NCBI GenBank assembly: GCA_021108395.1
Contig: JAIOQZ010000045.1
Location: 11,487-75,486 of the forward strand
Reading direction: 5' to 3'
Origin: Candidatus Cloacimonadota bacterium
Lineage (GTDB): Bacteria; Cloacimonadota; Cloacimonadia; Cloacimonadales; JAIOQZ01
DNA: 64,000 nt
This document shows positions 4,684 through 44,818 of this stretch, piece by piece. A program made the translations under genes and the position numbers. The notes beneath the pieces are model-generated. The model was not told the DNA's origin and did no database searches. It saw only the letters and a list, made by a program, of their open reading frames with translations. Every line of letters starts with the position of its first letter. Position 1 is the first letter of the stretch.

Positions 4684-4905
4684 GACAAGCTCACTTTTTG
4701 CAAAAAGTGAGATCAAAAACTTCTCTAAAAGGGTCACTCCGCTTCGCTACATGACTGGAACCTTCGTTTCCTATGTACAACAATTTCTTATGACACAAGG
4801 ATACTTTAGCATCCACCATAAATTTTCGGTCTCGCCTTTTACAAAAGGCGAGCGGGGTTCAGGGGCAGAGCCCCTGTCTTATTGGGCGAAGCCCCTGCTC
4901 TTAAG
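4684..4905. repeat. Hairpin-mosaic repeat locus A (modules H-L-X'-F' then C'-P-L'-H-T'-T')
   Basis: Contains CTCACTTTTTgcAAAAAGTGAG (4690-4711), GGTCACTCCGCTTCGCTACATGAC, GGAACCTTCGTTTCCTATGTACA, TTCTTATGACACAAGG, GGATACtttaGCATCC, CTCGCCTTTTacAAAAGGCGAG (4831-4852) and GGGGTTCAGGGGcagagCCCCTGTCTTA, plus a second partial terminal hairpin. The modules recur at eight other loci (see findings). Confidence 0.85.
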
Positions 4906-4961
4906 AAAATTGGCTTTGACAAAATTGCAGCCTGCGCCAGTGTGTTTTCATGGAGGTGAAC

Positions 4962-6482
4962 ATGAAACGTTATTGGTGCTTTGCGATGATTCTTGGCCTG
5001 CTGGCCTCTCTTTCTTCTATCCAGTTCCGCGTTATGACCTACAACTCGCTCAACTTCAACGGCGAGGACGCCACCCGCGCCGCCTACTTCGGCCAGGTGG
5101 TGCAAGAGGTTGACCCGCATGTAATAGTGATGCAGGAGATGATAAATCAGAACGGCGTAAACGTGATGATCGAAGCTATTTGCGAGGTGTCCGGCGACTA
5201 TGTGGCGGCACCGTTCGTCAATGGCTATGACACCGATAACATCATGTTCTACAAGCCATTCGCCGTCACCCTCACCGACCATTATTTCATCCCCACGGCC
5301 CTGCGGGAAATCGCTGAGTATGAGCTGGAGATTTACGGGGTGCCGTTGCGGGTGTATTCGTGCCATCTCAAGGCCAGCAGCGGCTGTGAGTCACAGCGCC
5401 TGGCCGAGGTGACCATCCTTCGCAACCACCTCAACGCCCTGCCCTCCGGCACCGAGTTCATTGTCGGCGGCGACATGAACATGTACACCTCAGGCGAGCC
5501 GGCCTATCAGAAATTCATCGCCAGCGAGGCTGACAACGACGGCCGCAGCTATGACCCCAGCCTGGCCGGTTCCTGGCACGACAACTCGAACTTCGCTCAC
5601 ATACACACGCAGTCAACCCGCGATGTGAGCGTTGGCGGCGGCGCTTCCGGCGGCCTCGACGACCGCTTCGACTTCCTGTTTCTCGCCTACGACCTCAATG
5701 ACGGCGACGGAATCGAATTCGTCGAGGATACCTACACGCCTTACGGTAACGACGGCAATCACCTCAACGACTCGATCAACGACGGCTATAACGCCGCCGT
5801 AAGCGCCGAGATGGCCGACGCGCTCTTCTATGCCACCGACCACCTGCCCGTGTTCGCCGACTTCACCTCCATCGAGTCGGTGTCCCTGGAGATGCTTGCC
5901 TACCGCGTGGAAGACGTAACCCGCTCACCGCTGTTGTCATGGATTACCCGCGCCGAAAGCGACATGCTGGGGTTCAACGTGCTGCACGCCCCCACAGACG
6001 ACCTGGGCGACGCTCAAGTTGTCACCGGCTCTGTCATTCCGGCATACAACAGCATGGGCGAAAACTACTATGGCTTCGAGGCGCCCGCCGACTTCGGCTA
6101 CAATTACTACTGGCTCGAGATGGTGGGCATGGACGGCACCACCGCCTTCACCAATTCGCTACAGTTCTACTCCACGCCCGTCACCGACGACACGACACCG
6201 CCCATCGTGGTCAACCTGGGGCAGAACTGGCCCAACCCGTTCAATCCCAGCACCACCATCGAATACGCCGTGTCCGCGCCGGCTACGGTCGAGCTTAGCG
6301 TCTTCAACCTGCGCGGGCAGCGGGTAGCCACGCTCGTCCGTGACGAGATGCCGGCGGGAAGTCACCGCGCTCAGTGGAGCGGCCAGGACTCGAGCGGCAA
6401 TCCGGTTGCATCCGGCGTGTATGTCTGCCGCCTGTCCGTCGGCGACGAAGTGCGCTTCCGCAAGATGGTGCTGACGAAGTAG
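4962..6482 (+). CDS. Secreted endonuclease/exonuclease/phosphatase (EEP) family protein with T9SS C-terminal sorting domain
   Basis: SD GGAGG lies 6 nt upstream of ATG 4962. It has a signal peptide (MKRYWCFAMILGLLASLSS), EEP-type motifs (MTYNSLNF, VMQE, GGDMN, TDHLPV) and a C-terminal NWPNPFNPSTTIEY...SGVYVCRL...MVLTK typical of Por/T9SS CTDs. Confidence 0.8.
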   Translation: MKRYWCFAMILGLLASLSSIQFRVMTYNSLNFNGEDATRAAYFGQVVQEVDPHVIVMQEMINQNGVNVMIEAICEVSGDYVAAPFVNGYDTDNIMFYKPFAVTLTDHYFIPTALREIAEYELEIYGVPLRVYSCHLKASSGCESQRLAEVTILRNHLNALPSGTEFIVGGDMNMYTSGEPAYQKFIASEADNDGRSYDPSLAGSWHDNSNFAHIHTQSTRDVSVGGGASGGLDDRFDFLFLAYDLNDGDGIEFVEDTYTPYGNDGNHLNDSINDGYNAAVSAEMADALFYATDHLPVFADFTSIESVSLEMLAYRVEDVTRSPLLSWITRAESDMLGFNVLHAPTDDLGDAQVVTGSVIPAYNSMGENYYGFEAPADFGYNYYWLEMVGMDGTTAFTNSLQFYSTPVTDDTTPPIVVNLGQNWPNPFNPSTTIEYAVSAPATVELSVFNLRGQRVATLVRDEMPAGSHRAQWSGQDSSGNPVASGVYVCRLSVGDEVRFRKMVLTK

Positions 6483-6552
6483 CCAAACTTTTTGTAAAAA
6501 GTTTGGATCAAAAACTTTCGGCGGATGCTTACGCATCCTTGTATCAGAAGGA
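6483..6552. repeat. Hairpin-mosaic repeat locus B (H-L-P-partial C)
   Basis: CCAAACTTTTTgtAAAAAGTTTGG (6483-6506) starts immediately after the EEP stop codon. It is followed by ATCAAAAACTTT, GGATGCttacGCATCC (6523-6538) and TTGTATCAGAAGGA. Confidence 0.8.
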
Positions 6553-6559
6553 TTTATCG

Positions 6560-6589
6560 AAAGAGGGGCGACTATAGTCGCCCCTCTTT
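6560..6589. terminator. Bidirectional rho-independent terminator between convergent genes
   Basis: AAAGAGGGGCGAC-tata-GTCGCCCCTCTTT is a perfect 13-bp stem with an A-tract and a T-tract on either side. It lies between the EEP gene (+) and the C25 gene (-). Confidence 0.8.
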
Positions 6590-6609
6590 GTATATTGAAT
6601 TGTCTGCTT

Positions 6610-9600
6610 CTACTTGAGCAACAGCATCTTACTTGTTTGGGTGAAGCCTGCCACGGTCATGCGCAGGAAATAGACCCCCGAGGCGGTTGGCTGGCCGGCA
6701 TCGTTGTCGCCGAGCCACAGCACCTCATGATTGCCGGGTTCGCGGTACTCACGCAGTAGCGTGCGCACACGCTGGCCGCGAACGTTGTACACCACCAGCT
6801 TCACCTCGCCCGCTTGCGCCAGGCTGAAGCGTACGGTCGTCTCCGGGTTGAAGGGGTTGGGGTAGTTGCTACCGAGCGCAGTAACCGCCACTGGAGCGCC
6901 GCTGCCATCCCCGTCAACGCCGCTGCCGTCCCAATAGACGGGAATCTCGCCGGTCGCTTCGGACAGGCCCACGTCGTAAACGGCATCGACCCAGTAGTAG
7001 TAATTGGTCAGCGAATCGATGCTGGAGACAAACAGGGTGTCATCGATGCCGTCGGCAACGAGTTCGGTATTGCCCGTGTCGATGCGCCGCCAGACACGGA
7101 ATTCCTGTAGCACGGCACGGTTGCGTTGTCCCTGCTCTCGCCGCGAGTTGCGGCTCAGTTCGCCGTCGTAGTCCCAGGTGAGAGTCAGCTCGCCATTTAA
7201 TTGGTCTGCCTGAATATCGTATGGCGGTTGCAGGTAGGTGAGCGCGAAATCGTGCCCTGCGGAAACCTCGCCTTGCAGAATGCTCACGTCGGCCTCGGTC
7301 TGCGGCTCGCAATAGCACGCCCAGGCGGTGAGGTCGTAGGTACCCTCGCTCACATACAGTGTCCAGTCACCCGTATCGAGGGGCGCCACGGTGCTCTCGC
7401 CGACGCTCACGCGGGCGCTGGAGAGCGGTATGGAAGGCTCGTCGATGGTGAGGCTGCCGGATAGTTTGCAGGCCATGTCCTGACTGCCGGTGACAGTCAC
7501 ATCGTCAATGGTCCAGCCATAGGCCACGGTGCTCCCATCCGCTCCGAAGTGGAAGCGGAAGGTGGCATAGTTGCCGGCGTAATCCCCAACGTCGAAGATC
7601 ACCTCGCTGTAGCCCGGACTATAGCCAGTGAAGCACGGCTCGTTGGGAATACCGGCGTTGCTGCCGTTGGCGGTGCCGTTGTAACCGCCCTGCGGATGGA
7701 TCAGATTCCAGGAGGAGCCGCCATCGATAGAGATTTTTACGTTGCAGCCATCGTGATCGAACTGAGTACGGAAGTCGTGCCAGAAGATGAGCTGGCTGCT
7801 GGCGCCAATGTAATACTCATTGGAGTATAGCGATTCGTCGGCGTTGTTGTTGTAAAACACCATAAGGTCGGTACCCCAGGCATAGAGGCCTGAGTTGGCG
7901 TCGATGTTGGGTATGCCGTACGCCCATTCATCTTCACCCACAAATCCCTCATCGCCCGACTCGAAATCGGTGCTCCAGCCCCATATGCCCACGGTTGACT
8001 GCAAAGTCCAGTTCCGTGTGCCACCACCGGCACACTCCACCTCGAATGTGAAGGTGATGGACTCGCCCACAACCGCGCCATCGCTGACACTGTAGGCAAA
8101 GGCGCGCTGCGCGTTGTCGCCTGCTGCGATGTCGGGATATGACAGCTCGGTATCGATGATGGTCACCGCTGCGCTGCTCGATGTCAGCGTGGCCACGACA
8201 TCGGCGGCGAATGTGTCGGAGATATTATCGATGTTGATGATGAGCAGCCCGTCCTCGCCCGGGTCCATAATGCCGTCGTTGTTGCCTTCGGCATCCCAGA
8301 TAAGCGAAGCTTCCATCTTGAGACGCGGTTTGTAGGACACCAGGGAGAATGTGTAGTTCCACGAGCTGTCGTCGTCATCGCACACAATATCGAAGGTGAT
8401 GACGTGTCCATCGGGGCACGAGGGCAGCACGTTGAAGGTGTAGAAGGCCTCGTTGACGCCGGTGTAGGTGCTCTCGATGTCGCTGTATTCGGCTGTGTCG
8501 GTCAGCAGGAGGATGTAGTCGTCGCTCGAGCTGATGGTGGCGGTTACGCCAGTGGCCGGTGAGAGGCCTACGTTCTCGAGATAGATACCCAAATCGATGG
8601 TCTCGCCGGCATCGATGATGCCGCTGCCATCTTCGTCGTGCACCACCACGTCACCCATGATGAGATAGCTGTCCTCGAAGCTCACTGGCGTGCCGGTGAA
8701 GAAGAGCGCTGTCTCATGGCCCAGGGAAGCCGCCGCAGTGGGGTATGTATTGTCATAGACATATTGCAGGCCCACCAACTCGGTATGGTCTTCCAGGCCA
8801 ATGGTGCAATAATTGCCCTGCTCGTTATATGGGCTCATATTCGAATCCACATCGTTGAACTGTTTGTATTGCATCTTGATCGGCCCGTCGAAGGTGGACG
8901 ACAGATAGTAATCGGGGTCGTAGAGAATGAGCTGGAACTCCTCGGCTGCACTGCCCACCCAGTTGATGCAATCCCAGGTAATCACGAAGGTGTGGCTCTC
9001 TGAGTCGAACCAGGAGTAAACACCGCCGCCGGTGGTGAACAGCTCGTCCCAGAACACGGCGATCATGGGGCTGGGGCCCAGCGCACCCGGGATGACCCAG
9101 TTGCGGAATGTCTTCTGCTCTGATAAGCCGAAAGTGACGAAGCCGTTGGAGCAGACACCGATGGTGTCGTAGTCAACGCCATAGAAGGTGAAAGTGAAGG
9201 GCAGCTCGCTAAACACGATATCGTCGCTCTCTTCGCCGGTATCGTTGATGGCGAGCTGCGTACCGGGCCCGCCCTGGCCGGGATCGATCTCGATCCAGTC
9301 GTATTCGGGGCAGTCGATATAGCCAATGTCGCCCATATCGTAAGCCACATAGCCATAGCTGTCGGGGCCCAGCGGGTCGGTGACGGTGACCACGCCCACC
9401 TCGAGCTGGAAGTGCTCGGTTTCGCTGTAGCCATCGGCATTACTGAGGGTCAGCTCGAAGGGGATAAACATCCCCGGCACGAGCAGCCCCAGACCGGTGA
9501 TCTCGAATGTATTGGTGTCGCATGTTGAGTTGTTTCCAGGGGCGATGCTGCCGAAGTCGGCTTCGGCGTCGTCCACGCGAACGAGGCCGTTGAGCGAAGT

Positions 9601-18117: not shown

Positions 18118-18912
18118 TCATTCAAATGCCGGTGTAAGTTCCTCACCATCTTTGATGTACCAATTTTGAAGTGTTTCACCGGTGATGTACTCTTGAGTTA
18201 TAGTCTTTCGTTGTGGAGGTTCGCTACTGTCAACAGTAACAGATACAGTTTGAGTAACATGCGCATGTATCGTGTCAACCTGAAACATGAACAAATAGTC
18301 ATACTCCTTCTCGTCAACAGCTATACGCATACCGATTCCCACTTGTCTTTCATTACAGAAATCGATAGATACCTGATTGAGTTTTGCTTCAATTTCTGTT
18401 TTTTTAAATGATGCGGTAACAGGATAATAGTTACCCATCAGATAGTACTCGTACGATATAGCATCAGCAAAGGTTAGTGACGTGTTTAGCAAAGCAATAG
18501 TGTACTCCTTGTATGCATCATATGAGAAACAAGAGATATTAGATATTGGTGTCGTGAACCGCCGTATCTGTCCGCCTGGTGGAATGATGCTCTGATATTT
18601 CGCTTTTACTATTGCTTCAAGATTGGCTTCCAATAAATCGGTGTGGAGAGCATTATAGGTATTTCCATCAGGCGTTATGAAATATGTGTAATCCCATAAG
18701 AGAATTGTGGGCTTCTCTGTACGGTTGTGCACTTTAAAAAGAATTCCGTTATAGGTTGGCGTGAAGCTGAAAATGAATAGAGAATCAGTGTACGATAAGC
18801 CCGATCTTTGCGGTTCCACTAATGAATAATCATATGTGTATAGAACTTTTACCGATGAACAAGCTGTCAGCAATAAGCAGGCAAGCCCAATCAAACAAAC
18901 GGCGATTTTCAT
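18118..18912 (-). CDS. Hypothetical lipoprotein (AT-rich islet)
   Basis: Lipobox ...ACLLLTAC|SS. There is no recognisable domain, and the gene is visibly AT-rich relative to the flanking lptD and kbl. Confidence 0.7.
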   Translation of the reverse strand: MKIAVCLIGLACLLLTACSSVKVLYTYDYSLVEPQRSGLSYTDSLFIFSFTPTYNGILFKVHNRTEKPTILLWDYTYFITPDGNTYNALHTDLLEANLEAIVKAKYQSIIPPGGQIRRFTTPISNISCFSYDAYKEYTIALLNTSLTFADAISYEYYLMGNYYPVTASFKKTEIEAKLNQVSIDFCNERQVGIGMRIAVDEKEYDYLFMFQVDTIHAHVTQTVSVTVDSSEPPQRKTITQEYITGETLQNWYIKDGEELTPAFE

Positions 18913-20402: not shown

Positions 20403-20609
20403 ATGGCTCATGTCCACATTACGTTGGAGACAGAAATGTTGCACGAACTTTTTCCCAAGGGCGGTCGTGATGAAGCTTTTTCCAGATTGCTTAAGACAAT
20501 CTTGAATCAAGTCTTATCTCATCAGGCGACCGAACAAACTGGTCAAAATGAACGCAGAGGAAGTTTACGCGCTAATTTGGACTTGACTTCGTTTCCGATG
20601 TACAGATAA
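20403..20609 (+). pseudogene. IS256-family (mutator-type) transposase, N-terminal remnant
   Basis: The first ~45 aa of the 68-aa ORF (...AFSRLLKTILNQVLSHQATEQTG) resemble the conserved IS256 N-terminal block (..LNQVLEAQ.TEQLG). The reading frame then runs into repeat locus C and terminates. No DDE domain is present. Confidence 0.5.
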
Positions 20610-20749
20610 TTCTTATGACACAAGGATGCGCTGGCATCCACGAAAGTTTTTTGTCTCGCTTTTTACAAAAAGCGAGTGGGGTTAGTCATGTAGCGAAGCG
20701 GAATGAGCCTTCAAAGAGGACACAGCGTCCCATCTTACAAAAAGTTTGG
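20585..20749. repeat. Hairpin-mosaic repeat locus C (F'-C'-P-L'-H-truncated T'-X, plus half H)
   Basis: GACTTCGTTTCCGATGTACA, TTCTTATGACACAAGG, ATGCgctgGCATCC, CTCGCTTTTTacAAAAAGCGAG (20655-20676), TGGGGTT and GTCATGTAGCGAAGCGGAATGAGCCTT, then ACAAAAAGTTTGG (20737-20749). Confidence 0.8.
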
Positions 20750-20798: not shown

Positions 20799-22289
20799 AT
20801 GAAACAAGCAATGGTTGTTGGAATCCTGTTGAGCGTCATAGTCACTCTGGGCACCGTTGAAAGCGACCTGGAAAGACTCATCGAGATGTATGAAAGTGGC
20901 GACTGGGGTTACGAGGAGTTGGAATTGGATATTGGCTCGGTGTTATCGGTGGACAGAACGGATAGAAGGTATGTGACAACAAGTGATGACGCAGGCTATC
21001 CTGTGGTTGAGAAGCTCGAGCGCTTTGGTGGCAACTTCGAGTTATTGTACACCAGACACCAGGAGAGTGAACAGCATTACCTGGATATGCAAATCAATCC
21101 CAGCTTCAGTCTCGATAAGTCCAATATAGAAAAAGATGACCATTATATTTTCTTCGAGAATTACTACGGTTATGGTTTCTTCGAGGAATACCTTCGAAAC
21201 TACACTGGTTCGATTGAAATCAATAAAATTTACCGAAAATACACGAGTGGGGACAGGTTCTTCAGCCTGGCTTTTGATGGTGGATTCGACATCAGTGGTG
21301 TAAAGAAAAGAACGAATATATCATATCAGGAGTACGATAACGCTGAGATAAACGTCCCGATAACGCTGAACCTGGGTGGTGGAACCGGCCGTATGCGGGA
21401 TGTTACGAATGTCGTAAGAGCCTGGCGTCTGGCGGAGCGACTGCAAGAGCAGAACGGAACACAACTCACCGACGAGCAGATACTCACCCTGGCTCGGTAT
21501 CTCGACCGGCAGCCTGCATATTCAGCCGCTTTCGACTGGAAGAACAACGCCGGCGACTATCATTTCTGGCAAGACGCGCTCTCCGCGATTGGCCTGGAGC
21601 AACTGAACTATGACGAGTTCCTGTACATCTCTCAGGAAGCTCGCGAAGGCACCATTCTTAGACGTCAACAAGGACTACTCATTGACTTTGGCGTCATTGG
21701 AGACTTGCATCTCAATACTCAGGAATACGATCCAGAAGCATACATAGTCATTGGGAATGACTACTATGAGACTAATTCGATTGATCAGTTTTCCATTGCT
21801 GGTGGTATATTCTTTTCGATTGAGTCAGCAAAAAACACGTCGAGTTCTGAACAGAAGAGGGTTACCGTGCTTGCGCAGGTGTTGATGGGAAAAACAACAA
21901 CAAGATATGATCTGGATGATTACGCTGATGAACTAAAATACACTGATGGAACCACAACCTTCAGCCTTGAACCGGGGATTGAGTACTTGAACCAGGTCTC
22001 AGATCGTTTTGGCGTCACGCTCTCAGCTTCGGCGCTCATGCTTACGCAAACAACAACTTCTGAGATGGATGACAACGATTCGAACACCTCTGACCATATG
22101 CTCCTCGGCCTTGATGTTGGTTGCCAGGGAACGTACTTCCTGGGCCCGGTGACAATGCTGGTGCTCGACGCAGGTTACAACAGGCTGGAATACTTCAATT
22201 CCGACATGGAGGCTGACAGCAATAAGGCCAGAGATAATTGGCTCATCAGTCTGCAATTGACATTCAGACCCCTCGCACGAATGTTCTGA
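20799..22289 (+). CDS. Hypothetical secreted protein, possible outer-membrane beta-barrel
   Basis: SD AAGAGGA lies 8 nt upstream of ATG 20799, and there is an N-terminal signal-like segment (MKQAMVVGILLSVIVTLG). The C-terminus ends ...LQLTFRPLARMF (terminal Phe, as in OMP beta-signals). GC content is lower than the backbone, and mosaic repeats flank both sides. Confidence 0.6.
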   Translation: MKQAMVVGILLSVIVTLGTVESDLERLIEMYESGDWGYEELELDIGSVLSVDRTDRRYVTTSDDAGYPVVEKLERFGGNFELLYTRHQESEQHYLDMQINPSFSLDKSNIEKDDHYIFFENYYGYGFFEEYLRNYTGSIEINKIYRKYTSGDRFFSLAFDGGFDISGVKKRTNISYQEYDNAEINVPITLNLGGGTGRMRDVTNVVRAWRLAERLQEQNGTQLTDEQILTLARYLDRQPAYSAAFDWKNNAGDYHFWQDALSAIGLEQLNYDEFLYISQEAREGTILRRQQGLLIDFGVIGDLHLNTQEYDPEAYIVIGNDYYETNSIDQFSIAGGIFFSIESAKNTSSSEQKRVTVLAQVLMGKTTTRYDLDDYADELKYTDGTTTFSLEPGIEYLNQVSDRFGVTLSASALMLTQTTTSEMDDNDSNTSDHMLLGLDVGCQGTYFLGPVTMLVLDAGYNRLEYFNSDMEADSNKARDNWLISLQLTFRPLARMF

Positions 22290-22306
22290 ATAATGGTACC
22301 ATCGCA

Positions 22307-22432
22307 TTGTACATAGGAAACGTAGTTTCCACATAAGTTTTCGGTTTCGCCTTTTACAAAAGGCGAGCTTGTCATGTAGCGTAGCGGAGTGAGCTTTCTA
22401 AAGGTTCAGGGGTGGAACCCCTGCTCTTGAGG
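22307..22432. repeat. Hairpin-mosaic repeat locus D (F-L'-H-X-T')
   Basis: TTGTACATAGGAAACGtAGTTTCC, ACATAAGTTTTCGG, TTCGCCTTTTacAAAAGGCGAG, GTCATGTAGCGTAGCGGAGTGAGCTTT and GGTTCAGGGGtggaaCCCCTGCTCTTGAGG. The final GAGG serves as the SD for recG, with the ATG 5 nt downstream. Confidence 0.85.
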
Positions 22433-24522: not shown

Positions 24523-24692
24523 AGAGACAGGGGTTCCACCCCTGAACCCCGCTTACCTTTTTCGAGAAAAAGGTAAGACAAAAAGCTTTAACGGATACTG
24601 CGTATCCTGTGCACGAAAGATATTCTTATGACGCAAGGATGCGTTAGCATCCACCAGAGGTTTTTGATCCAAACTTTCTTCAAAAAGTTTGG
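24521..24692. repeat. Hairpin-mosaic repeat locus E (T-H-L-P-C | C'-P-L'-H, tail-to-tail dimer)
   Basis: GAAGAGACAGGGGttccaCCCCTGAACCCC, CTTACCTTTTTcgagAAAAAGGTAAG, GGATACtgcGTATCC, TGTGCACGAAAGATATTCTTATGACGCAAGG, ATGCgttaGCATCC and CCAAACTTTCTtcAAAAAGTTTGG (24669-24692). It fills the whole recG-rlmI spacer and overlaps both stop codons. Confidence 0.85.
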
Positions 24693-25840: not shown

Positions 25841-25902
25841 GCTTCGCCCCAAGCGTGGATGAACTCGAGCACTGGCAGACTGAGCCGCATCAGCTCGTTG
25901 TG
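25810..25902. repeat. 93-bp direct repeat, copy 1 (mfd-tail/rlmI-start junction; functional rlmI start)
   Basis: Identical to 26601-26693 except for one position (25893 G vs 26684 A), by eye alignment with an offset of 791 bp. Confidence 0.9.
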
Positions 25903-26015
25903 ATTGGTGCGAATAGTATTGCACTCTGTACAGTGTTGAGTGAGATCTCCTTTCGTGCCGGAGTAGAGACTACCCTCGTCCGTGTATTGGCGAAGAATGT
26001 CGAGGTTTGCGTGGG

Positions 26016-26600: not shown

Positions 26601-26693
26601 TCTCGCGTCCAGGCTTCAGGATGGCCTTCATGCTTCGCCCCAAGCGTGGATGAACTCGAGCACTGGCAGACTGAGCCGCATCAACTCGTTGTG
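26601..26693. repeat. 93-bp direct repeat, copy 2 (functional mfd tail plus a decoy rlmI start)
   Basis: See copy 1. It contains the mfd stop (26628-26630) overlapping a second ATGAAGGCCATCCTGAAGCCTGGACGCGAG (MKAILKPGRE) start. Confidence 0.9.
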
Positions 26694-29600
26694 GCTGGCG
26701 CGGTAGTCATTGGACAGGGTGAAGAACACCTTCAGGTTGCCCGAGGTATCGAAGCGAACTGGGTAGTCGAAGCGCTGCACCAGCTTACCCAAATGCTGGC
26801 GGCTGGGCAGTCTGCGGCTGTCGAATTCGAGCACGAGCTCGCCACCCTTGAGCTGGTACGATACCAACTGGGCGTGCTCGGTGTGCATGCGCAGCCGATA
26901 GAACAGCAACGCTTGCTTCGCCGGTGACGGCGCCTCGCCAAAGCGGTCGATCAACTCGGCCTCGAGTTCGTCGAACTGCGATGCGTTCTCGAAACCCAGC
27001 ATTCGCTTATAGAGGTCGAGGCGCGTTTTTTCGTCGGCGATGTAGCTGTCGGGGAAATAGTGGTCGCCCGTAACCCGAACCGGCGGTGTCTGCGCTTCCT
27101 GCTCCGACCATATCTGCTGGTCTTCGTCGAGGTTGGTGATTGCCTGTTCGAGCAACTGGTTATAGTAGTTAAACCCGACGCTATTGATGACGCCGCTCTG
27201 CTTTGTTCCCAGCAGCGTACCGGCACCGCGAATCTCGAGGTCGCGCATGGCGATCTGATAGCCTGCGCCCAGATAGTCGTACTCAGTGAGCGTTTCGAGC
27301 CGCTTGCGAGCTTCCTCGCTCATGCGGGTGGGAATGACCAGATAGGCGTAGGCGCGGCGGTTGCTGCGGCCCACACGGCCTCGAAGCTGATAGAGCTGCG
27401 CTAGGCCGAACATGTCGGCGCGGTTCACGATTATCGTGTTGGCGTTGGGGATGTCGATGCCCGACTCGATGATGGCGCTGGTAATGAGCACATCGAACTT
27501 GTGGTGAGCGAAGTCGAGCATGACGCGCTCAAGCTGGCGCTCGGGCAACTGGCCATGAGCAATGGCAAAGCGCACATGCGGCAACAGTTTGCGCAAGTCC
27601 TGCGCCATGCTGTCGATGGTCTGCACACGGTTGTGCAAAAAGAACACCTGCCCGCCGCGATCTATCTCGCGGTTCACGGCGTCCTTGATGATCTCCTCGT
27701 CGAACGGCACAATGATGGTGCGCACCGGCAGGCGCGCCTTGGGCGAGGTCTGCATCAGCGAGATTTCCTTGAGTCGCGACATCGCCATGTTGAGCGTACG
27801 GGGAATGGGCGTGGCGCTCATATACAGCGTATCGACGTTGGCCTTTATCTGCCGCAGCTTTTCCTTGTGGCGCACTCCAAAGCGGTGTTCCTCGTCGATG
27901 ATGAGCAGTCCCAGCCGCTTTAAACGAACGTCTTTGGACAGCAACCTGTGTGTGCCAATGGCGATGTCAATCTGCCCCTCGCCCAGCGCAACGATGTCTT
28001 TCTTCATCGCGGCGGGTGTGCGGAACCGACTGAGCATCGTGATGTTGACAGGGTACTGCGCCAGCCGTTCGCGGAAGACGAGATAGTGCTGCTCGGCCAG
28101 CAGCGTGGTGGGAACCAGCACCGCCACCTGGTAACCCGCAAGCACTGTCTTGAACGCGGCGCGGATGGCCACCTCGGTTTTGCCAAAGCCCACGTCGCCG
28201 CAGAGCAGGCGCTCCATTGGCACGTCGCTCTCCATGTCCTGCTTGATCTCGCAGGTGGAGCGCGACTGGTCGGGCGTGTCCTCATAGATGAAGGCGTCCT
28301 CCATCTCGGTCTGCCAGGGGGCGTCGGGCGCGATGGCGATGCCCTTGCGCACCTTGCGCTCGGCATACAGCTTCACGATGTCCTCGGCCACCACCTCGAT
28401 CTGCTTGCGGGCGCGCTGCTTCTGCGTTTCCCACATCTTGCCGCCCAACTTGTGGATGGTTGGCCGATAGCCTTCCTCAGAGACAAACCGGCTCACCAGG
28501 CTGAGCTGGAACGTAGGTACATAGACTGTGTCGTTATCGGCGTAGCGCAGCGTGAGGCACTCGATTTCGCTGCCTTCCACGCTCATGCGCTTCAGGCCTT
28601 CATATACGCCAATGCCATAGTCGATGTGAACGATGTAGTCACCGGGTTGCAGGGCTTCATAATCGACCAGCGCTTCGTCTTTGGCAAACTGCGAGGCGCT
28701 GCGCCGCTTGCGGTAGCGACTGAATATCTCGTGGTCGGTGAACACCGACAGCTTCGCGTCGAGCAGGTTGAAGCCCTTTTGCAGCACACCGATGGTGAAA
28801 GTGACGCTGTCGGCCAGTTCCGGCAGCAGCTCGCGCATTCGTTTGCTCTGGCTGCGGTTGTCGCTCTGAATAAACACCGCGTGTCCGGCGGCGATTTTGT
28901 CGTTCAGGCTGCGCTCGAGCATGCCCAGGTCGCTGTGCATGTTTGTCTGCGAGGTGAGCGGCGCTTCGAGCCGGCTGACGATATGGGCGTGTTCCTGGTA
29001 GGATGAGGCGAGAAAATGCGTGTGAGCGGTGGTCAGCAGGTTGTCCAGCCAGGCGCGGCTCTCGAACAACCGCGTTGGCTCCGGCAACTGGCGTTTCTTT
29101 TTCTGAGTGCGGCTCTTTTGCCATAGCTCGGCCACTTCCTGCTCCAGCTCCTCGATATAGCCAGGAAAGAACTGATACTCGTCGAAGAGGAAAAGCGGCT
29201 GCTTCAACCACTGGGCAAAGCTTTCGAGTCGTGGCAGCAGTAGCGACACATCCTGCTCGATGCCGTCATAGAAGCCGTTATCGTGAATGCGCTCCCACAG
29301 TTGTTCGTCGGCGTCGATGTCGTGCAATGAAAACTCGCGAGAGGGCAGCAGCGTCACCCGTTTCACGGCGCCCTCCAGCGAACGCTGCGAAGCCACGCTG
29401 AACGAGCGCATGCCCACAATCTCGTCACCCCAGAACTCGATGCGCACCGGATAGGCGAGGTTGGGCGAAAACACGTCCACAATGCCGCCGCGCCGCGCCA
29501 CCTCGCCCACACGCGACACCTGGTATTCGTTGGCGTAACCCATGCCCACGAGGTTGGACACCAGCACGTCGGGGTCATACTCTGCGCCGCTATTGAGGCC

Positions 29601-30023
29601 GATGATGTTGGCCGCAAACATCTCGCGGGGCACGATCTGGCGCAGCAGCGAGCGCAACGGCACGCTGTATATCTGCGGTCGGCCGGACACGGCCCTGGCC
29701 AAAGCCTCGATGCGCTGTGCCCGGATGGTGTAGTGCGGCGAGCGCTCCTCGAAGGGCAGCACCTCGAAGTCGGGCAGCAGGCAGGCGCTTTCGCGTCCAA
29801 CCAGAAGCTGCAAGTCTTCGAGGTAGTCCTCGGCGGTTTTGTCGTCGGCGCTGACAAAGACGATGTCGCACTGCCTTTGACGGAAGACATGCGCCGCCAG
29901 CGCTGCCTTGGCCGAGGCGTTGAGGCCGTGCAGCAGACAGCCGCGCCCCTTCGCCGACAGAGCCTCCGTGGCCTGCGTGAAGAACGGGGAACGTTCGAGT
30001 TGCACAAAAAGCTGTGAAAGCAT
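26628..30023 (-). CDS. mfd: Transcription-repair coupling factor Mfd
   Basis: About 1,131 aa with a UvrB-homology N-terminus and helicase motifs GDVGFGKTEVA, IIDEEHRFGV, ATPIPRTL and QLRGRVGRS. The second of two ATGs lies 5 nt downstream of SD AGGAG. Confidence 0.95.
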   Translation of the reverse strand: MLSQLFVQLERSPFFTQATEALSAKGRGCLLHGLNASAKAALAAHVFRQRQCDIVFVSADDKTAEDYLEDLQLLVGRESACLLPDFEVLPFEERSPHYTIRAQRIEALARAVSGRPQIYSVPLRSLLRQIVPREMFAANIIGLNSGAEYDPDVLVSNLVGMGYANEYQVSRVGEVARRGGIVDVFSPNLAYPVRIEFWGDEIVGMRSFSVASQRSLEGAVKRVTLLPSREFSLHDIDADEQLWERIHDNGFYDGIEQDVSLLLPRLESFAQWLKQPLFLFDEYQFFPGYIEELEQEVAELWQKSRTQKKKRQLPEPTRLFESRAWLDNLLTTAHTHFLASSYQEHAHIVSRLEAPLTSQTNMHSDLGMLERSLNDKIAAGHAVFIQSDNRSQSKRMRELLPELADSVTFTIGVLQKGFNLLDAKLSVFTDHEIFSRYRKRRSASQFAKDEALVDYEALQPGDYIVHIDYGIGVYEGLKRMSVEGSEIECLTLRYADNDTVYVPTFQLSLVSRFVSEEGYRPTIHKLGGKMWETQKQRARKQIEVVAEDIVKLYAERKVRKGIAIAPDAPWQTEMEDAFIYEDTPDQSRSTCEIKQDMESDVPMERLLCGDVGFGKTEVAIRAAFKTVLAGYQVAVLVPTTLLAEQHYLVFRERLAQYPVNITMLSRFRTPAAMKKDIVALGEGQIDIAIGTHRLLSKDVRLKRLGLLIIDEEHRFGVRHKEKLRQIKANVDTLYMSATPIPRTLNMAMSRLKEISLMQTSPKARLPVRTIIVPFDEEIIKDAVNREIDRGGQVFFLHNRVQTIDSMAQDLRKLLPHVRFAIAHGQLPERQLERVMLDFAHHKFDVLITSAIIESGIDIPNANTIIVNRADMFGLAQLYQLRGRVGRSNRRAYAYLVIPTRMSEEARKRLETLTEYDYLGAGYQIAMRDLEIRGAGTLLGTKQSGVINSVGFNYYNQLLEQAITNLDEDQQIWSEQEAQTPPVRVTGDHYFPDSYIADEKTRLDLYKRMLGFENASQFDELEAELIDRFGEAPSPAKQALLFYRLRMHTEHAQLVSYQLKGGELVLEFDSRRLPSRQHLGKLVQRFDYPVRFDTSGNLKVFFTLSNDYRASHNELMRLSLPVLEFIHAWGEA

Positions 30024-30030
30024 CATCTCT

Positions 30031-30294
30031 CCTAAGAGCAGGGGCGCCGCCCCTGAACCCCACTCGCCTTTTGCAAAAGGCGAGACCGAAAACTTTTGTG
30101 GATGCTACGCATCCTTGTGTCAAAAGAATAATATGTGTACATGGAAATATTTCTGGACGAATGATAACGCATCTTCGTTATACACACAAGTTTATTTTTA
30201 CTGTACATAGGAAACGAAGTTTCCGCAAAAGTTTTTGATCCAAACTTTTTACAAAAAGTTTGGTGGGGTTCAGGGGCAAAGCCCCTGTCTTAGG
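30031..30294. repeat. Hairpin-mosaic repeat locus F, full-length palindromic composite (T-H-L-P-C-centre-F-L'-H-T')
   Basis: CCTAAGAGCAGGGGcgccgCCCCTGAACCCC ... GGGGTTCAGGGGcaaagCCCCTGTCTTAGG form terminal inverted repeats. Internal modules are CTCGCCTTTTgcAAAAGGCGAG, GGATGCtacGCATCC, TTGTGTCAAAAGAATAAT, TGTACATAGGAAACGaAGTTTCC and CCAAACTTTTTacAAAAAGTTTGG. It fills the divergent mfd/fetA spacer. Confidence 0.9.
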
Positions 30295-30301
30295 AGATGC
30301 G

Positions 30302-30976
30302 ATGCTTTACGAGATACGTCTGAACAAGCTGCAATATGAAGACAAGCTTCTACTGCGCAATGTTTCACTGGACATCGAAGCGGGCGAGAAGGTGCTCATC
30401 GTGGGCGAAACGGGTTGCGGGAAGACCTCGCTGCTGCACACGCTGAACCTGATGAATCCCGGCTACGATGGCTGCATCAAGTTTCACGGTGAACCGATTA
30501 AGGCCCATCCTCCAGATACACTGCGGGCACGGGTCATCGAGGTGATGCAGGAGCCGGTGCTGGGCGATGGCTCTGTGCGGCAGGCTATCGAGTATCCCCT
30601 GCGCTTTCATGTTCATCGCGGCAAGAGCTTTTGCAACGACCGCATACGCGAGCTTCTCGCTGCGCTCAGGCTGCCGGATGGCATCCTCGACAAGCCGGTC
30701 GATACGCTGTCTGGCGGCGAGAAACAGCGGGTGGCACTGGTTCGGGCCATGCTGCTCGAGCCAGAAGCGCTGCTGCTGGACGAACCAAGCTCCGCGCTCG
30801 ACCAGTCAGTGTCCGCTCAGGTAGCTGACTATCTGCTATGCTGCTGGGACGGCGCCATCATCGGCATCAGCCACGACCCGACCTGGCAGCGCAAGTTCAC
30901 GCACACATTCACGTTTGCGGACAAGAGGCTGCTCGACGAGAAGAAGCTGCAAAGTATCCCGGAGGTGACGCAATGA
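30302..30976 (+). CDS. fetA: ABC transporter ATP-binding protein, FetA/YbbL-like
   Basis: Walker [10 protein letters not shown], signature LSGGEKQR and Walker B LLLDEP. SD AGGAG lies 5 nt upstream, and the stop overlaps the start of the UPF0014 permease (ATGA). Confidence 0.75.
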
Positions 30977-31785
30977 TGGAAGTTCGCACCATAGGGCTGG
31001 TCATCAGCTTTGGGCTGATGCTGCTGCCGCTGCTCATTTTCAAGTATATGAAGCTGCCGCTCATCAAGGCGACGGGGGTGGCGTTCCTGCGGATGGTGGT
31101 GCAGCTTGCCGTGATTGGCCTCATCCTCTCATACATTTTCCGCTGGGATCATCCGGCCATCACCATTGGCTGGCTTGCGTTCATGGTGGCGGCGGCCACC
31201 TACACCGTGCTCGAACGCCTCGAACTGCCGTGGACGTTTCTGTTGCCGGTGGTGCTGTTCCCGCTTTTACTGGCGTCGGGGAGTATGTTGGCGATTTTTG
31301 CTGTACTCGTGGTCAAACCTGACACCGCCGTCGGGTACCCGCTGGTCAATCCGCGGCTGCTGATTCCCGTCTTCGGGATGATTCTGGGTAACAGCATGAA
31401 CGCGACTGCGCAGGCGTTGGAGCGTCTGGCAAGTGATTTGAAAGCCAACTGGCGGCGCTATTACTCCGACATCACGATGGGAGCGCGGCCACGAGAGGCG
31501 GCCGCCCCGTTCATTCGCAACGCCATGCGCGCCTCGCAGATGCCGCGCATCATGAACATGGCGTCCGTCGGCATCATCTCGCTGCCGGGCATGATGGCTG
31601 GCCTCATCGTGCAGGGCGCAGACCCCACCCAGGCTATCAAGTATCAGATGATGGTGATGGCGGGTATATTCGTGGCGGTGACACTGGCTGTGGGAGGGAC
31701 GCTACACCTCTATGTGGGCAAGATTTTCGACAACTGGTATCTGCCAGTACCGACGTTGCGCCGTAAGAAGGGGCTTCGCCCCTGA
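30973..31785 (+). CDS. fetB: Iron-export ABC permease FetB/YbbM (UPF0014 family)
   Basis: [29 protein letters not shown] and [31 protein letters not shown] align well with E. coli YbbM as I remember it. The last 8 codons lie inside repeat locus G. Confidence 0.8.
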
Positions 31786-31854
31786 CACCCCACAAACTTT
31801 TTGCAAAAAGTTTGATCAAAAACTCTTAGCGGATGCTGCGCATCCTTGTGACAC
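31763..31854. repeat. Hairpin-mosaic repeat locus G (variant T-H-L-P-partial C)
   Basis: GTAAGAAGGGGcttcgCCCCTGACACCCC, CAAACTTTTTgcAAAAAGTTTG (31793-31814), ATCAAAAACTCTTAGC, GGATGCtgcGCATCC and TTGTGACAC. Confidence 0.8.
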
Positions 31855-31855
31855 T

Positions 31856-31987
31856 CACCCCCCTGTCAAGGGGGGAAAACCCGTCCGCGGGTCAGGGGGG
31901 TATAAGAAAATATTCATGTGAAGAAAAGAACCACGAAAAACGATACCCCCCTGCCGCTTCGCGGCTGCCCCCCTTGACAGGGGGGTG
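31856..31987. repeat. 132-bp nested palindrome with self-palindromic C6/G6 termini
   Basis: CACCCCCCTGTCAAGGGGGG (31856-31875) and CCCCCCTTGACAGGGGGGTG (31968-31987) are exact reverse complements, and each is itself a hairpin. The inner arms ...CAGGGGGGTAT / ATACCCCCCTG also pair. Each arm carries its own small hairpin (ACCCGtccgCGGGT; GCCGCttcGCGGC). The centre is AT-rich, about 39 nt. Confidence 0.8.
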
Positions 31988-32001
31988 TTGAAGCAGAAAA
32001 C

Positions 32002-32900: not shown

Positions 32901-33037
32901 TGAAGAGCAGAAGATACTTCGCATCCTTGTGCACAAAATATATTCTTATGACACAAGGAAACGTAGTTTCCACAAAAGTTTTTGGTCTCGCTTTTTTCAA
33001 AAAGCGAGCGGGGTTCAGGGGTGGAACCCCTGTCTTA
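32901..33037. repeat. Hairpin-mosaic repeat locus H (T fragment-degenerate P-C|C'-F-L'-H-T')
   Basis: TGAAGAGCAG, GATACTTCGCATCC, TTGTGCACAAAATATATTCTTATGACACAAG, GAAACGtAGTTTCC, CTCGCTTTTTTcAAAAAAGCGAG (32987-33008) and GGGGTTCAGGGGtggaaCCCCTGTCTTA. The terminal TTA is the complement of the nnr stop codon. Confidence 0.85.
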
Positions 33038-35892: not shown

Positions 35893-35980
35893 ATGTCAAT
35901 GAATTATTAGTTTGTATTGAAAACGCTTGACATTTAATGAAATGCTATTAGTGATTTTAACAGACAATCGGAGGCCACAA

Positions 35981-36757
35981 ATGAAAGAGCGTACATTGAA
36001 GAGTCTGTTTGCATTTTCTCATAATAGGTGTGCTTTCCCTGGTTGCGATGAACCTATCGTTACCTTTGAGGATCAAATAGTATTGGGTGAGATTTGCCAT
36101 ATTGAATCCTCTAAACCTACTGGACCAAGATATAACAGTGAACTTACCGGTGATAAATGTGATAGTATAGATAATTTACTGCTACTTTGCAGAATTCATC
36201 ATAAATTGATTGATGCGAATACTATGAAATTTCCCGTAAAAGTATTAAGGAAGATGAAAAATACACACGAAGACACAACAATAAAAGAAATCGGAATCAA
36301 GGAAAAACAAGCCGGTATATTGCTATATCAACATCATATTTGTGTTATTGGGAATGTTGTAATCCGTAATTCAGAAGCTACAATTACTGCACACAATGTA
36401 AATATCAGGGGCAGTAAACGGCTTAAGGTTAACAAAGTACCACTCGAAAACTCGATAGGTGCAAATATTTATAAAAAGGCATACATTGAATATCTTATTC
36501 ATCGCTACAATGAATTAGCATCTGAAAATGCAAATAGGAAAAGCAAGTTTAGTCATGCAGCAATTCGAAAGAATATCAAGGATAATTTCGGTGCTTTGTC
36601 TAATGATATGCCGATTGATAAATTTGAAGATATATCACGTTATCTACAGCGAAGAATAGATCGTACTATGATTGCTCGAATGAAGAAAGCATCTGGCAAA
36701 ATGTATCATTCGTTTGAAGATCATGTAAGAAAAATGAAAGGGAGTGAGAAAAAATAA
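35981..36757 (+). CDS. HNH endonuclease domain protein with uncharacterised C-terminal domain (AT-rich islet)
   Basis: SD GGAGG lies 6 nt upstream. The N-terminus reads NRCAFPGCDEP...GEICHIES...DNLLLLCRIHHKLID (Cys pair plus H-N-H). The remaining ~170 aa are unassigned. The gene is strongly AT-rich compared with its flanks. Confidence 0.75.
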   Translation: MKERTLKSLFAFSHNRCAFPGCDEPIVTFEDQIVLGEICHIESSKPTGPRYNSELTGDKCDSIDNLLLLCRIHHKLIDANTMKFPVKVLRKMKNTHEDTTIKEIGIKEKQAGILLYQHHICVIGNVVIRNSEATITAHNVNIRGSKRLKVNKVPLENSIGANIYKKAYIEYLIHRYNELASENANRKSKFSHAAIRKNIKDNFGALSNDMPIDKFEDISRYLQRRIDRTMIARMKKASGKMYHSFEDHVRKMKGSEKK

Positions 36758-38403: not shown

Positions 38404-38463
38404 TCCATCCTGTTCGATAACAGCAATTGTGAAGTGGTCTTCCCCGACCGCTCATATGTAAAC

Positions 38464-38489
38464 GGGAGCAGGTTTCCAGCCCTGCTCCC
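38464..38489 (+). terminator. Hairpin downstream of gdhA (weak terminator candidate)
   Basis: GGGAGCAGG-tttccagc-CCTGCTCCC. No clear T-tract follows. Confidence 0.3.
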
Positions 38490-38519
38490 CTCCCTGATAA
38501 CCACAACAAGGAGAGCAAG

Positions 38520-38759: not shown

Positions 38760-38848
38760 CATAACATCTTTGGGTCTCATCGAACGGCATTACCTCCGGA
38801 AACCTTTGGCCGGGAGATGGGACCCTTCTTTTCTTGTACGGAGTGTAC

Positions 38849-40540: not shown

Positions 40541-40557
40541 CCTCTTTGGGAGAACAC

Positions 40558-43713: not shown

Positions 43714-43724
43714 GGACTGACCTC

Positions 43725-44585
43725 TTGCCGCTGGCTTGGTTCTGTTCCGACCTGCATGGTCATATAGACCGCTACGATAAGCTCTGGAAGCGATTGCGAC
43801 AGATGCCGCCGGATGTGCTGCTGCTGGGAGGCGATCTTCTGCCCGGCGGCTCGGCGCTGCGGCATGTCCACAACCCGCGCTACAATGACTTCGTCCACGA
43901 CTTCCTTGCCAAAGGGTTCAGCAAAGTCCGCCGTGAGCTTGCCGAGCGTTATCCGCTGGTGTTGCTCATCATGGGCAACGACGACCCGCGCTTTCACGAA
44001 AGCTCGCTCATCGAGGCGGGGGCAGGCGGACTGTGGACCGTCCTTCACGAGCGAAAGCTGGATGCGCTGGGTTACAGCTTCTATGGCTATCCATACGTCA
44101 ACCCGACGCCGTTTATGCTCAAGGACTGGGAGCGCTGGGACGTCTCACGCTTCGTCGATGTGGGGGCGGTGCCGCCCACAGAAGGCATGCGCACCGTGCC
44201 GGCAGACCCGCGCCAGACAGACTGGCACACGATTCGCCGCGACCTGGATGCGCTGGCCGATGACGATCTCGAACGTGCCGTGTTCCTGTTTCACGCCCCG
44301 CCCTATAACACGCCACTCGACCGCGCCGCGCTCGACGGGATGATGGTTGACTTCGCCCCGCTCGACGTGCATGTGGGCAGCATAGCCATAGCGGAATTTA
44401 TCGAGAAGCGGCAGCCTCGCGTCACCCTGCACGGGCATATACACGAGGCGGTCAGGCTCACGGGGCAATGGCACATCACCACTGGGCGAACGCATAGTTT
44501 CGGGGCCGCGCACGACGGCCCGGAACTGGCGCTGGTGGCCTTCTCACTCGACTCGCCGGACAACGCCGCCCGCGAACTATTGTAA
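43725..44585 (+). CDS. Metallophosphoesterase (calcineurin-like)
   Basis: TTG start 11 nt after the upstream stop. Motifs CSDLHGH, LLLGGDLLP, IMGNDD, LFHAPP and LHGHIHE are present. Confidence 0.75.
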   Translation: MPLAWFCSDLHGHIDRYDKLWKRLRQMPPDVLLLGGDLLPGGSALRHVHNPRYNDFVHDFLAKGFSKVRRELAERYPLVLLIMGNDDPRFHESSLIEAGAGGLWTVLHERKLDALGYSFYGYPYVNPTPFMLKDWERWDVSRFVDVGAVPPTEGMRTVPADPRQTDWHTIRRDLDALADDDLERAVFLFHAPPYNTPLDRAALDGMMVDFAPLDVHVGSIAIAEFIEKRQPRVTLHGHIHEAVRLTGQWHITTGRTHSFGAAHDGPELALVAFSLDSPDNAARELL

Positions 44586-44589
44586 CACC

Positions 44590-44818
44590 GTGAAGACAGG
44601 GGTTCCACCCCTGAACCTTTGAAAGCTCACTCCGCTTTGCTACGCAACAAGCTCGCTTTTTGTAAAAAGCGAGACCAAAAACTTCTAACGGATGCTAACG
44701 CATCCTTGTATAATAAGAATAATTTTTGTACATAGGAAACGCAGTTTCCGCAAGAGTTTTTGATTCCACTTTTTACAAAAAGTGGATGGGGTTCAGGGGC
44801 AACGCCACTGTCTTAAGG
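44590..44818. repeat. Hairpin-mosaic repeat locus I, full-length palindromic composite (T-X'-H-L-P-C-F-L'-H-T')
   Basis: GTGAAGACAGGGGttccaCCCCTGAACC, GAAAGCTCACTCCGCTTTGCTACGCAAC, CTCGCTTTTTgtAAAAAGCGAG, GGATGCtaacGCATCC, TTGTATAATAAGAATAAT, TGTACATAGGAAACGcAGTTTCC, CCACTTTTTacAAAAAGTGG and GGGGTTCAGGGGcaacgCCACTGTCTTAAGG. It fills the whole spacer between the metallophosphoesterase and rbr stops. Confidence 0.9.

Follow-up and report, generated by a model that had tools for sequence, protein, structure and literature searches.

Hairpin-rich two-arm repeated elements in intergenic spacers of a Cloacimonadota-like bacterium and of Clostridia

What are the short hairpin modules that recur between the genes of contig JAIOQZ010000045.1 (assembly GCA_021108395.1, Candidatus Cloacimonadota bacterium), and how did they come to be there? 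The question arose from a model's reading of the sequence alone, which described a modular mosaic of hairpin modules, some of them optional, at nine intergenic loci of the 64-kb window analysed here (positions 11,487 to 75,486 of the contig). All nine loci, lettered A to I (Table 1), are present with the modules as described, in spacers and in both orientations. The explanation preferred here, with moderate confidence, is that they are copies of a non-autonomous repeated DNA element spread by insertion, of the kind represented by mosaics of repetitive extragenic palindromic sequences (REP) and bacterial interspersed mosaic elements (BIME) and by hairpin-rich miniature inverted-repeat transposable elements (MITE). 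Spread by insertion is proposed because the copies are dispersed, mosaic and often truncated, leave footprints at gene ends, are restricted to certain lineages and recur in a second phylum.

Architecture of the element in the window

The basic unit is an arm of about 95 nt with three hairpins, ordered T-H-L-P-C from the outside in, as the sequence-only reading had proposed. Module T, CAGGGGC-N3-GCCCCTG, is a 17-nt hairpin with a 7-bp GC stem and a triloop, preceded by (T/G)AAGA(G) and followed by AACCCC. Its stem had been regarded as fixed around a variable loop; the loop does vary, but locus C carries a T variant with the stem GGAC/GTCC. Module H is a perfect palindrome of 9-12 bp in which the outer 4-6 bp vary and an inner run of T4-5/A4-5 is fixed. 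Its centre is 2 nt long, and DNA folding gives a 4-nt loop there. The variable complementary stem first noticed in H was found again, but the T and A runs belong to that stem. L is the linker A[CT]C[AG]AAAACTT, P is a 6-bp hairpin with three variants (GGATGC/GCATCC, GGATAC/GTATCC and GGAAAC/GTTTCC), and C is the tail TTGTGTCATAAGAAT. What had been listed as a separate module F is in fact TGTACATA followed by the P variant GGAAAC-N3-GTTTCC, two compensated positions away from GGATGC/GCATCC. Module X (GTCATGTAGCGAAGCGGARTGAGC), rightly called optional, is an insert of about 34 nt that stands at the T/H boundary in loci D and I and after L in locus A.

A complete element consists of two arms joined tail to tail round a short centre, about 230-265 nt in all. 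Complete composites with T at both ends were found at loci F (264 nt) and I (229 nt); locus E, to which two T ends had also been ascribed, has T at its left end only. Loci A, C, D, E and H are truncated or rearranged and loci B and G are single arms, and most loci are truncated, nested or recombined versions of the two-arm element. Within a pair, the arms carry different H stems (CTCGCC and CCAAAC in locus F, CTCGCT and TCCAC in locus I, CTTACC and CCAAAC in locus E), and their T loops differ as well. Linker and H stem are associated: ACC(R)AAAAC occurs with stems of the CTCGC type and ATCAAAAAC with those of the AAAC or CAC types. In addition, the 5' arm of H recurs as L and the 3' arm of T as ACCCC, so that L and ACCCC would each have an alternative pairing partner. 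Folded as DNA, the single arms give z-scores of -3.2 to -5.7. Composite F folds at -72.8 kcal/mol (z -11.8), with its T modules paired together and H and P folded locally.

The distribution of the family was determined over the whole window. A profile built from ten arms and run with nhmmer returned 13 arms, every one of them inside the nine loci, and a covariance model of T and H, called R1, gave the same distribution. All 13 arms lie in nine spacers and none within a gene, and the nine loci are linked by many direct and inverted repeat pairs of up to 103 nt. The pattern GGGGN5CCCCTGAMCC, with at most one mismatch, matched nine times against 0.03 expected, and an L+P pattern five times against 0.15 expected; in neither case did any of 100 shuffles score as high. 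Of the 11 spacers in the first 45 kb that measure 140 nt or more, 8 contain elements, as does the shorter spacer B (127 nt); all four convergent spacers of this part are filled. The profile search found no arm in the 45-64 kb part of the window, and none was found in the 8.4 kb to its left.

Table 1. Arms, composites and adjoining features at loci A to I (positions of the window; E values from nhmmer, bit scores from R1)
Locus	Feature	Position	Strand	Evidence
A	Left partial arm, H (CTCAC stem) and L, no T; X' next at 4733-4755	4689-4723	+	nhmmer E 2e-6
A	Full arm T-H-L-P-C	4784-4881	-	nhmmer E 9e-27; R1 76.6 bits; fold z -5.25
A	Additional partial T copy	4885-4905		Sequence
B	Arm H-L-P-C without T, beginning at the upstream stop codon	6482-6553	+	nhmmer E 3e-15; fold z -3.49
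Adjoining B	Canonical bidirectional terminator hairpin	6560-6589		Sequence
C	H-L-P-C arm (20609-20687), X (20685-20708), degenerate T (GGAC/GTCC) and half H	20585-20749	-	nhmmer E 1e-19; R1 48.3 bits
D	Arm T-X-H-L-P2 with TGTACATA	22306-22432	-	nhmmer E 1e-14; R1 27 bits across the X insert
E	Left full arm T-H-L-P	24521-24623	+	nhmmer E 6e-20; R1 69.2 bits; fold z -5.30
E	Right arm H-L-P-C without T	24622-24695	-	nhmmer E 2e-15; ORF coordinates
F	Composite: arm 30036-30129 (+), centre 30130-30194, arm 30195-30292 (-)	30031-30294		nhmmer E 4e-26, 1e-23
G	Arm T-H-L-P	31763-31853	+	nhmmer E 2e-22; R1 62.7 bits
H	Full arm T-H-L-P2-C (32942-33037) and second-arm remnant (32901-32941; T stub, half P)	32901-33037	-	nhmmer E 4e-27; R1 80.4 bits; fold z -5.11
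I	Composite: T-X'-H-L-P-C 44592-44720 (+), T-H-L-P2 44720-44815 (-)	44590-44818		nhmmer E 3e-20, 4e-23; R1 69 bits

Pairing in the stems and copies in a second phylum

That the stems vary and yet remain complementary, as had been claimed from the window, was upheld statistically on 108 copies, namely the R1 matches at E <= 1e-12 in the window, in Clostridia loci and in one viral contig. In this alignment, 99.4% of 1709 stem cells are Watson-Crick pairs, double-sided changes occur in 12 of the 17 pairs (243 cells), and several stem positions show three or all four Watson-Crick pair types. None of 500 shuffles matched the observed pairing or covariation score, and pairing fell to 42-64% when the partner was slid by 1-3 columns. 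The window alone holds seven variants of the outer H stem, all perfect, and the three P variants. The view that selection acts on structure rather than on sequence holds only in part: the hairpins are kept, but sequence conservation that extends across phyla is seen in the GGGG/CCCC core of T, in the T/A core of H and in the linkers ACCCC and L.

A structured RNA family with three hairpins per arm, be it of cis-regulatory elements in 3' or 5' untranslated regions or of small RNAs, would likewise show three stable hairpins in a row, compensatory changes and a position in untranslated spacers. However, G-U pairs are not enriched among the mismatch cells (5 G-U against 10 other), the arms stand in both orientations relative to the flanking units, and the palindromic composites are alike on both strands. 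No promoter or terminator was found consistently attached to the arms, and outward -35 promoters at the element ends were dropped as candidates, the -10 boxes not being consistent. Rfam, a check proposed along with the original description, gave no match in the window at the gathering threshold and, at E <= 5, only a sub-threshold RmaA (6548-6626) that touches the end of locus B and is not relevant to the family; at the gathering threshold, six Clostridia loci yielded two tRNAs only. An RNA family is thus very improbable. Since wobble pairs are tolerated no more than other mismatches and no orientation bias is seen, the recognised form would be a DNA hairpin, extruded or single-stranded, so that of the two options offered earlier, RNA or single-stranded DNA, the former is the unlikely one.

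The family is not private to this genome. A scan of representative genomes with the T-core pattern matched at least 114 stretches, and among the matches listed are many metagenome-assembled genomes (MAGs) of rumen and gut Clostridia, such as 'Ruminococcus sp.' RUG10751, RUG11850, RUG11803 and RUG10944, together with Oscillibacter, Oscillospiraceae, Eubacteriales and MGYG-HGUT-01204. In these Clostridia, the H and L that come after T are those of the window: CAGGGGCTTTGCCCCTGAACCCCACAAACTTTTTGAAAAAAGTTTGACAAAAACTTT, for example, shares about 90% identity with the window arms F_R (the right arm of locus F) and G, and the outer 60 bases or so are nearly unchanged, although this is another phylum. 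With R1 at E <= 1e-12, at least 95 copies were counted in Clostridia loci and two in one IMG/VR contig. The profile of the window H-L-P-C, which has no T and whose sites are not selected by the T pattern, found at least 59 sites in Clostridia loci and none in the nearest relatives of the window. Other modules are recognisable in Clostridia as well, namely X (GGCTCACTTCGTTCGG), C (AATTGTCATAGCT), P (AAATTTGC-TTAC-GCAAATTT) and the composite centre (GAATGAT). The Clostridia elements add outer hairpins of the form TTAAGGGC-N3-GCCCTTAA, and their composites measure about 165-190 nt.

In several rumen MAGs (L042, 6175-6327; also L056, L068, L082, L101 and L118), the elements usually begin 5-20 nt past a canonical intrinsic terminator, or past a pair of tRNA genes and a terminator, which suggests that terminator-proximal DNA is a preferred or tolerated landing site.

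Confinement of the copies to one contig had been named as a sign of an assembly or chimera artefact. Chimeric joins through a foreign repeat, made in assembly or binning, were therefore considered. The same modules in Clostridia MAGs of very different GC content are what such joins might leave, and they equally show that the copies are not confined. On either side, every window copy adjoins unique genes that belong to a single syntenic chromosome segment of the type of the Fibrobacterota-Chlorobiota-Bacteroidota (FCB) group, and the window copies are distinct in their GC-richer H stems and in having P and C modules of their own. Furthermore, the window genes recur on ENA contig ERZ26872896 NODE_25 and on Logan contigs of SRR15668623, and in the latter, an independent assembly, the gene-element junctions are found again on three contigs (L002, L004 and L143). 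These contigs end 39-58 nt into an arm, as expected since real dispersed repeats would cause such breaks; the family breaks short-read assemblies. An artefact is very unlikely.

Hairpin arrays built on GGGGC-N3-GCCCC, both tandem and mirror-image, were also seen in Acetobacteraceae (including Asaia), Magnetococcales, Desulfovibrionaceae, Lachnospiraceae and other Clostridia (L031, 1180-1460; L069, 5560-5800 and 7200-7520; L041, 6200-6460; L054, 5830-6030; L048, 7280-7460; L049, 1000-1150 and 1700-1830; L007, 1640-1850; L100, 2400-2620). They have (G)A(A)CCC(C)RY linkers, and several arrays may lie within 8 kb; they follow the grammar of the T unit and have neither H nor L. A common enzyme, convergence or a bias of the search pattern could each account for these arrays in other phyla. 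It is a rather doubtful suggestion that the window family is one branch of a wider, undescribed superfamily of single-strand-DNA hairpin elements, built from units in which (A)AYCCCRY follows a GGGGC-N3-GCCCC hairpin whose closing pair covaries freely. A horizontally mobile enzyme would then recognise this unit and propagate arrays, which would account for the identity of about 90% over a non-coding stretch of 60 nt between phyla.

Gene ends, rival explanations and known systems

The window has a GC content of 57% and carries a housekeeping segment with grpE-dnaK-dnaJ-rsmE, a glycogen phosphorylase gene, an LptD-like gene, recG, mfd, an ABC/UPF0014 pair, nnr/yjeF and gdh; no tRNA gene was found in it. 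Several of its proteins bear C-terminal domains of the type used by the type IX secretion system (T9SS). The closest named relatives of its DnaK (75-78% identity) and RecG (49-57%) are Candidatus Cloacimonadota, which places the host close to this phylum, among the diderms of the FCB group.

Elements lie between convergent, divergent and tandem genes, with T facing the upstream stop or the downstream start codon and with arms in either orientation relative to transcription. Locus F fills the divergent Mfd/ABC spacer and locus I a convergent one. In several cases the end of the adjoining gene, its last codons or its stop codon, has been replaced by a copy. The RecG stop TGA (24520-24522) overlaps the first bases of the T end of the left arm of locus E, the TAA stop of Nnr/YjeF is the terminal TTA at 33035-33037, which are the first bases of the T end of locus H, and the UPF0014 stop is the TGA of CCCCTGA within T of locus G (31783-31785). 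The right arm of locus E terminates within the 3' end of the RlmI-like gene, whose last four codons and stop (24680-24682) are part of the H hairpin (24680-24692). Three genes, mfd, the ABC gene and recG, have AGGAG or GAGG 4-7 nt ahead of their start codons, supplied by the outward T end CTTA(A)GG or CTTGAGG; at locus F, AGGAG stands at this distance ahead of both divergent starts, and at locus D the T end CTCTTGAGG lies 5 nt ahead of the RecG ATG. These ends, which resemble ribosome-binding sites, and the new stop codons would be by-products of insertion.

At composite F, the palindrome extends 14 nt past the element on both sides (30017-30024 and 30301-30308). The string GATGCTTT stands at an equal offset of 6 nt on either side, and the divergent mfd and ABC genes can both begin with ATGCTTT. 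This symmetry is either a coincidence or a sign that the start codons were derived from the element.

The position of the elements could instead reflect a use to the host. As structural DNA analogous to BIMEs, the hairpin array would bind nucleoid proteins or gyrase, or insulate or terminate transcription, and would be kept by selection whatever its origin. The occupation of all four convergent and most long spacers within 45 kb fits such a role, as do the strong sequence conservation of T, L and the H core across phyla, the nearly perfect hairpins, the AGGAG or GAGG offered to three start codons and the P module of the Clostridia MAGs, which resembles a terminator of A-tract, stem and T-tract. 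On the other hand, an intrinsic-terminator scan found 16 terminators against 13.2 expected from shuffles, which is no excess, and separate canonical terminators adjoin the elements. Since such terminators sit beside locus B and at many RUG loci, the elements are not simply terminators, and this candidate was dropped. Truncation and shuffling, moreover, preserve no single set of modules, and no copies lie at 45-64 kb of the window or in the leftward 8.4 kb. No copy was present in about 330 kb of the nearest relatives examined (L119-L122, L123-L141, L144 and L145), although their housekeeping genes are the same (DnaK 80-87%, RecG 71% and Mfd 41-67% identical to those of the window; L145, with the RecG of 71% identity, has 60% GC). 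A host-maintained role is therefore considered unlikely. A site for integration host factor (IHF) in L was likewise dropped, as only two L variants come close; the L form GATCAAAAACTTT lies two mismatches away from the IHF consensus WATCAANNNNTTR.

In support of insertion, an orthologous spacer in Clostridia holds a composite in RUG10751 (L078, about 3800-4000) and none in RUG11803 (L115); another pair of Clostridia loci (L088 and L118) gave no clean empty site.

The form of the complete composites recalls a classical MITE, in which the 80-95 nt arms would be the terminal inverted repeats of a deleted insertion sequence, moved by a DDE transposase encoded elsewhere in the genome and acting on double-stranded DNA. 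Composites F and I are indeed bounded by long imperfect inverted repeats with T outermost, and their size (229-264 nt), their AT content, which is higher than that of the genome, their intergenic position and their patchy distribution agree with this. Target-site duplications are absent, however, at both window composites and at 19 Clostridia composites; at composite F, the outside bases continue the palindrome in place of a duplication. Paired arms that carry different H and T variants behave as independent units, and single arms and fragments are as common as composites. Moreover, the internal hairpins are kept Watson-Crick, which is no requirement for a DDE enzyme binding to terminal inverted repeats. 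No full-length insertion sequence with such ends was found in about 1.1 Mb of loci, in plasmid and phage collections or in the viral contig, and composite F gave no BLAST match to the plasmid and phage collections. A classical MITE is accordingly improbable.

Under the preferred explanation, insertion of a non-autonomous element, the enzyme that makes the copies would act in trans. The best guess is an HUH/Y1 single-strand transposase of the IS200/IS605 type or of the type of the REP-associated tyrosine transposases (RAYT), given the hairpin ends, whose short flanks are conserved, and the lack of a target duplication; this assignment to the HUH type is tentative. That the element is selfish DNA spread by insertion is, by comparison, likely.

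Several results weigh against spread by insertion. Domain searches found no transposase of any kind in the window or in about 8 kb more of the host genome, in agreement with the earlier statement that no transposase with matching ends lies there. In the Clostridia loci, no open reading frame (ORF) recurs beside the copies, and the only ORF clusters are ABC ATPases, GlgC/GlgD and Lon. Probes for IS608 TnpA and the E. coli RAYT gave no match in 1.14 Mb, a weak test since the probes were approximate. The missing target-site duplications belong here too. In the lineage of the window, no clean empty site could be identified, because the relatives (L119-L145) are too distant and not syntenic, sharing neither spacers nor, for the most part, gene order. 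The window arms differ from one another by 10-40%, and therefore no recent burst occurred in the window. The T-H-L identity of about 90% across phyla and the filling of all four convergent spacers fit a host-useful function equally well. Finally, the covariation alignment was fitted to the structure and the shuffles leave relatedness in, and part of the covariation signal may be inherited subfamily structure and not repeated independent compensation.

The one viral contig found in the T-H-L scan, a prophage-border contig of IMG/VR, carries two copies and genes for a terminase, a capsid protein, a ZIP transporter and a LysM protein, with no transposase between the copies.

A name for the family was sought in the literature. 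Full-text searches with module strings returned the T core only in unrelated PCR primers and nothing for the T-loop and X strings, and keyword searches for an already known family in Cloacimonadota or Clostridia turned up nothing beyond general REP and MITE papers. Searches by sample and MAG accession had no result either. REP sequences are GC-rich imperfect palindromes of 20-40 nt, extragenic and of high copy number, with a GTAG or CGTC tag (PMC3733652). Module T, a 17-nt GC hairpin with nine copies in 45 kb and in spacers only, is comparable in size and placement but bears no such tag: the sequences on its two sides are AAGA(G) and AACCCC, and those beside H are ACCCC(A/G)C and GA(C/T)C. GTAG occurs in the window copies only inside the optional X, not beside a hairpin, and is absent from the Clostridia X.

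The analogy with the BIME/REP mosaics of E. coli, drawn from the sequence at the outset, is apt for the architecture, and the resemblance is one of design only. Like the BIMEs of E. coli and other enterobacteria, the family is strictly extragenic, has a high copy number, often lies at gene 3' ends and uses a small vocabulary of hairpin modules (T, H and P, including GC hairpins with variable closing pairs) and fixed linkers (L, C and X) in variable combinations, order and orientation. Unlike them, it has no sequence similarity to the Y and Z REPs and no GTAG or CGTC foot tag, it has three classes of hairpin, including an AT-cored palindrome of 10-12 bp, and it forms defined two-arm composites. 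Defined modules of BIMEs bind IHF, gyrase or Pol I. Its hosts are a Cloacimonadota-like bacterium and Clostridia and not Proteobacteria, and no RAYT was found in the sequence searched.

REPINs, the REP doublets mobilised by a RAYT whose gene lies in the same genome with the repeats on its flanks, are, like the family, short non-coding elements that end in an inverted pair of GC hairpins, lack a target duplication and conserve their hairpins at the DNA level. However, the arms of a REPIN covary into one long hairpin, whereas those of the composites here differ in their H and T variants. The element is also 3-4 times as long as a REPIN, and the approximate probes saw no RAYT in 1.14 Mb. We know of no RAYT gene in the hosts of the family. 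With MITEs it shares the inversion of the T-H-L-P arms at both ends of F and I, but not the target-site duplication.

Other intergenic repeats of 100-300 nt are strongly structured in the same way, among them the pneumococcal BOX (boxA-B-C), Correia of Neisseria, ERIC/IRU, RIME of Rhizobium and Nezha of cyanobacteria. BOX and RIME are modular like the family, and such repeats can supply promoters, terminators and coding ends, often with no transposase known. The short terminal inverted repeats and the target duplications that mark Correia and Nezha were not seen in the window family. To our knowledge, none of these repeats is related to it in sequence or has been reported across phyla. The palindrome-associated elements derived from IS200/IS605 (PATEs) are similar in their subterminal hairpins, short conserved flanks, lack of target duplication and single-strand DNA logic. 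The ends of IS200/IS605 are not inverted repeats of one another, and their insertion is strand-specific at a fixed tetra- or pentanucleotide; the ends of the family elements are mirror images, and no fixed flanking target was seen at them. The family thus fails the defining tests of tagged REPs, REPINs and classical MITEs, yet it works like them.

As far as we know, REP/BIME-type elements and RAYT transposases are known almost only from Proteobacteria. A family common to Clostridia and an FCB-group bacterium would extend REP/BIME biology to new phyla and would provide a concrete case of transfer of a non-coding element across phyla. It rewrites gene ends by supplying new stop codons and sequences like ribosome-binding sites, and it may be of use as a strain-typing marker; the R1 covariance model can be applied to any genome. 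The near-perfect Watson-Crick upkeep of three hairpins predicts an enzyme that reads DNA hairpins.

Other features of the window

Beside locus G, positions 31856-31988 form a palindrome of about 130 nt that holds CCCCCCTGTCAAGGGGGG with its mirror copy, CAGGGGGGTAT/ATACCCCCCTG and an inner GCCGC-TTC-GCGGC hairpin. It folds as DNA at -46.8 kcal/mol (z -9.1), is single-copy in the window and is unrelated in sequence to the family.

A direct repeat of 102 nt, 96% identical, occurs at 25810-25911 and 26601-26702. It runs from the last 24 codons of mfd through the overlapping TGA/ATG into the RlmI-like gene, of which it includes the first 10 codons, and its copies bracket a 689-bp insert with a 165-aa ORF that has no Pfam match. 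An insertion or duplication seems to have split a junction at which mfd and rlmI originally overlapped.

Several genes stand out by their low GC content. An islet of about 45% GC at 53145-55048 (minus strand) encodes an AbiL-type defence pair, with AbiLi an AAA_21 ATPase (E 3e-80) and AbiLii RloB-like (E 5e-22). At 35927-36757, an HNH_2 nuclease gene (37% GC) stands alone between a histidine kinase gene and gdh; it resembles the PADLOC candidate PDC-M68A and HNH effectors of the CBASS/SAVED type (E 8e-29). Three ORFs, at 18118-18912, 20799-22289 and 57164-57955, have a GC content of 38-46%, compared with 57% for the window, and match nothing in Pfam or PADLOC. All three were probably acquired; the second, 20799-22289, lies between loci C and D.

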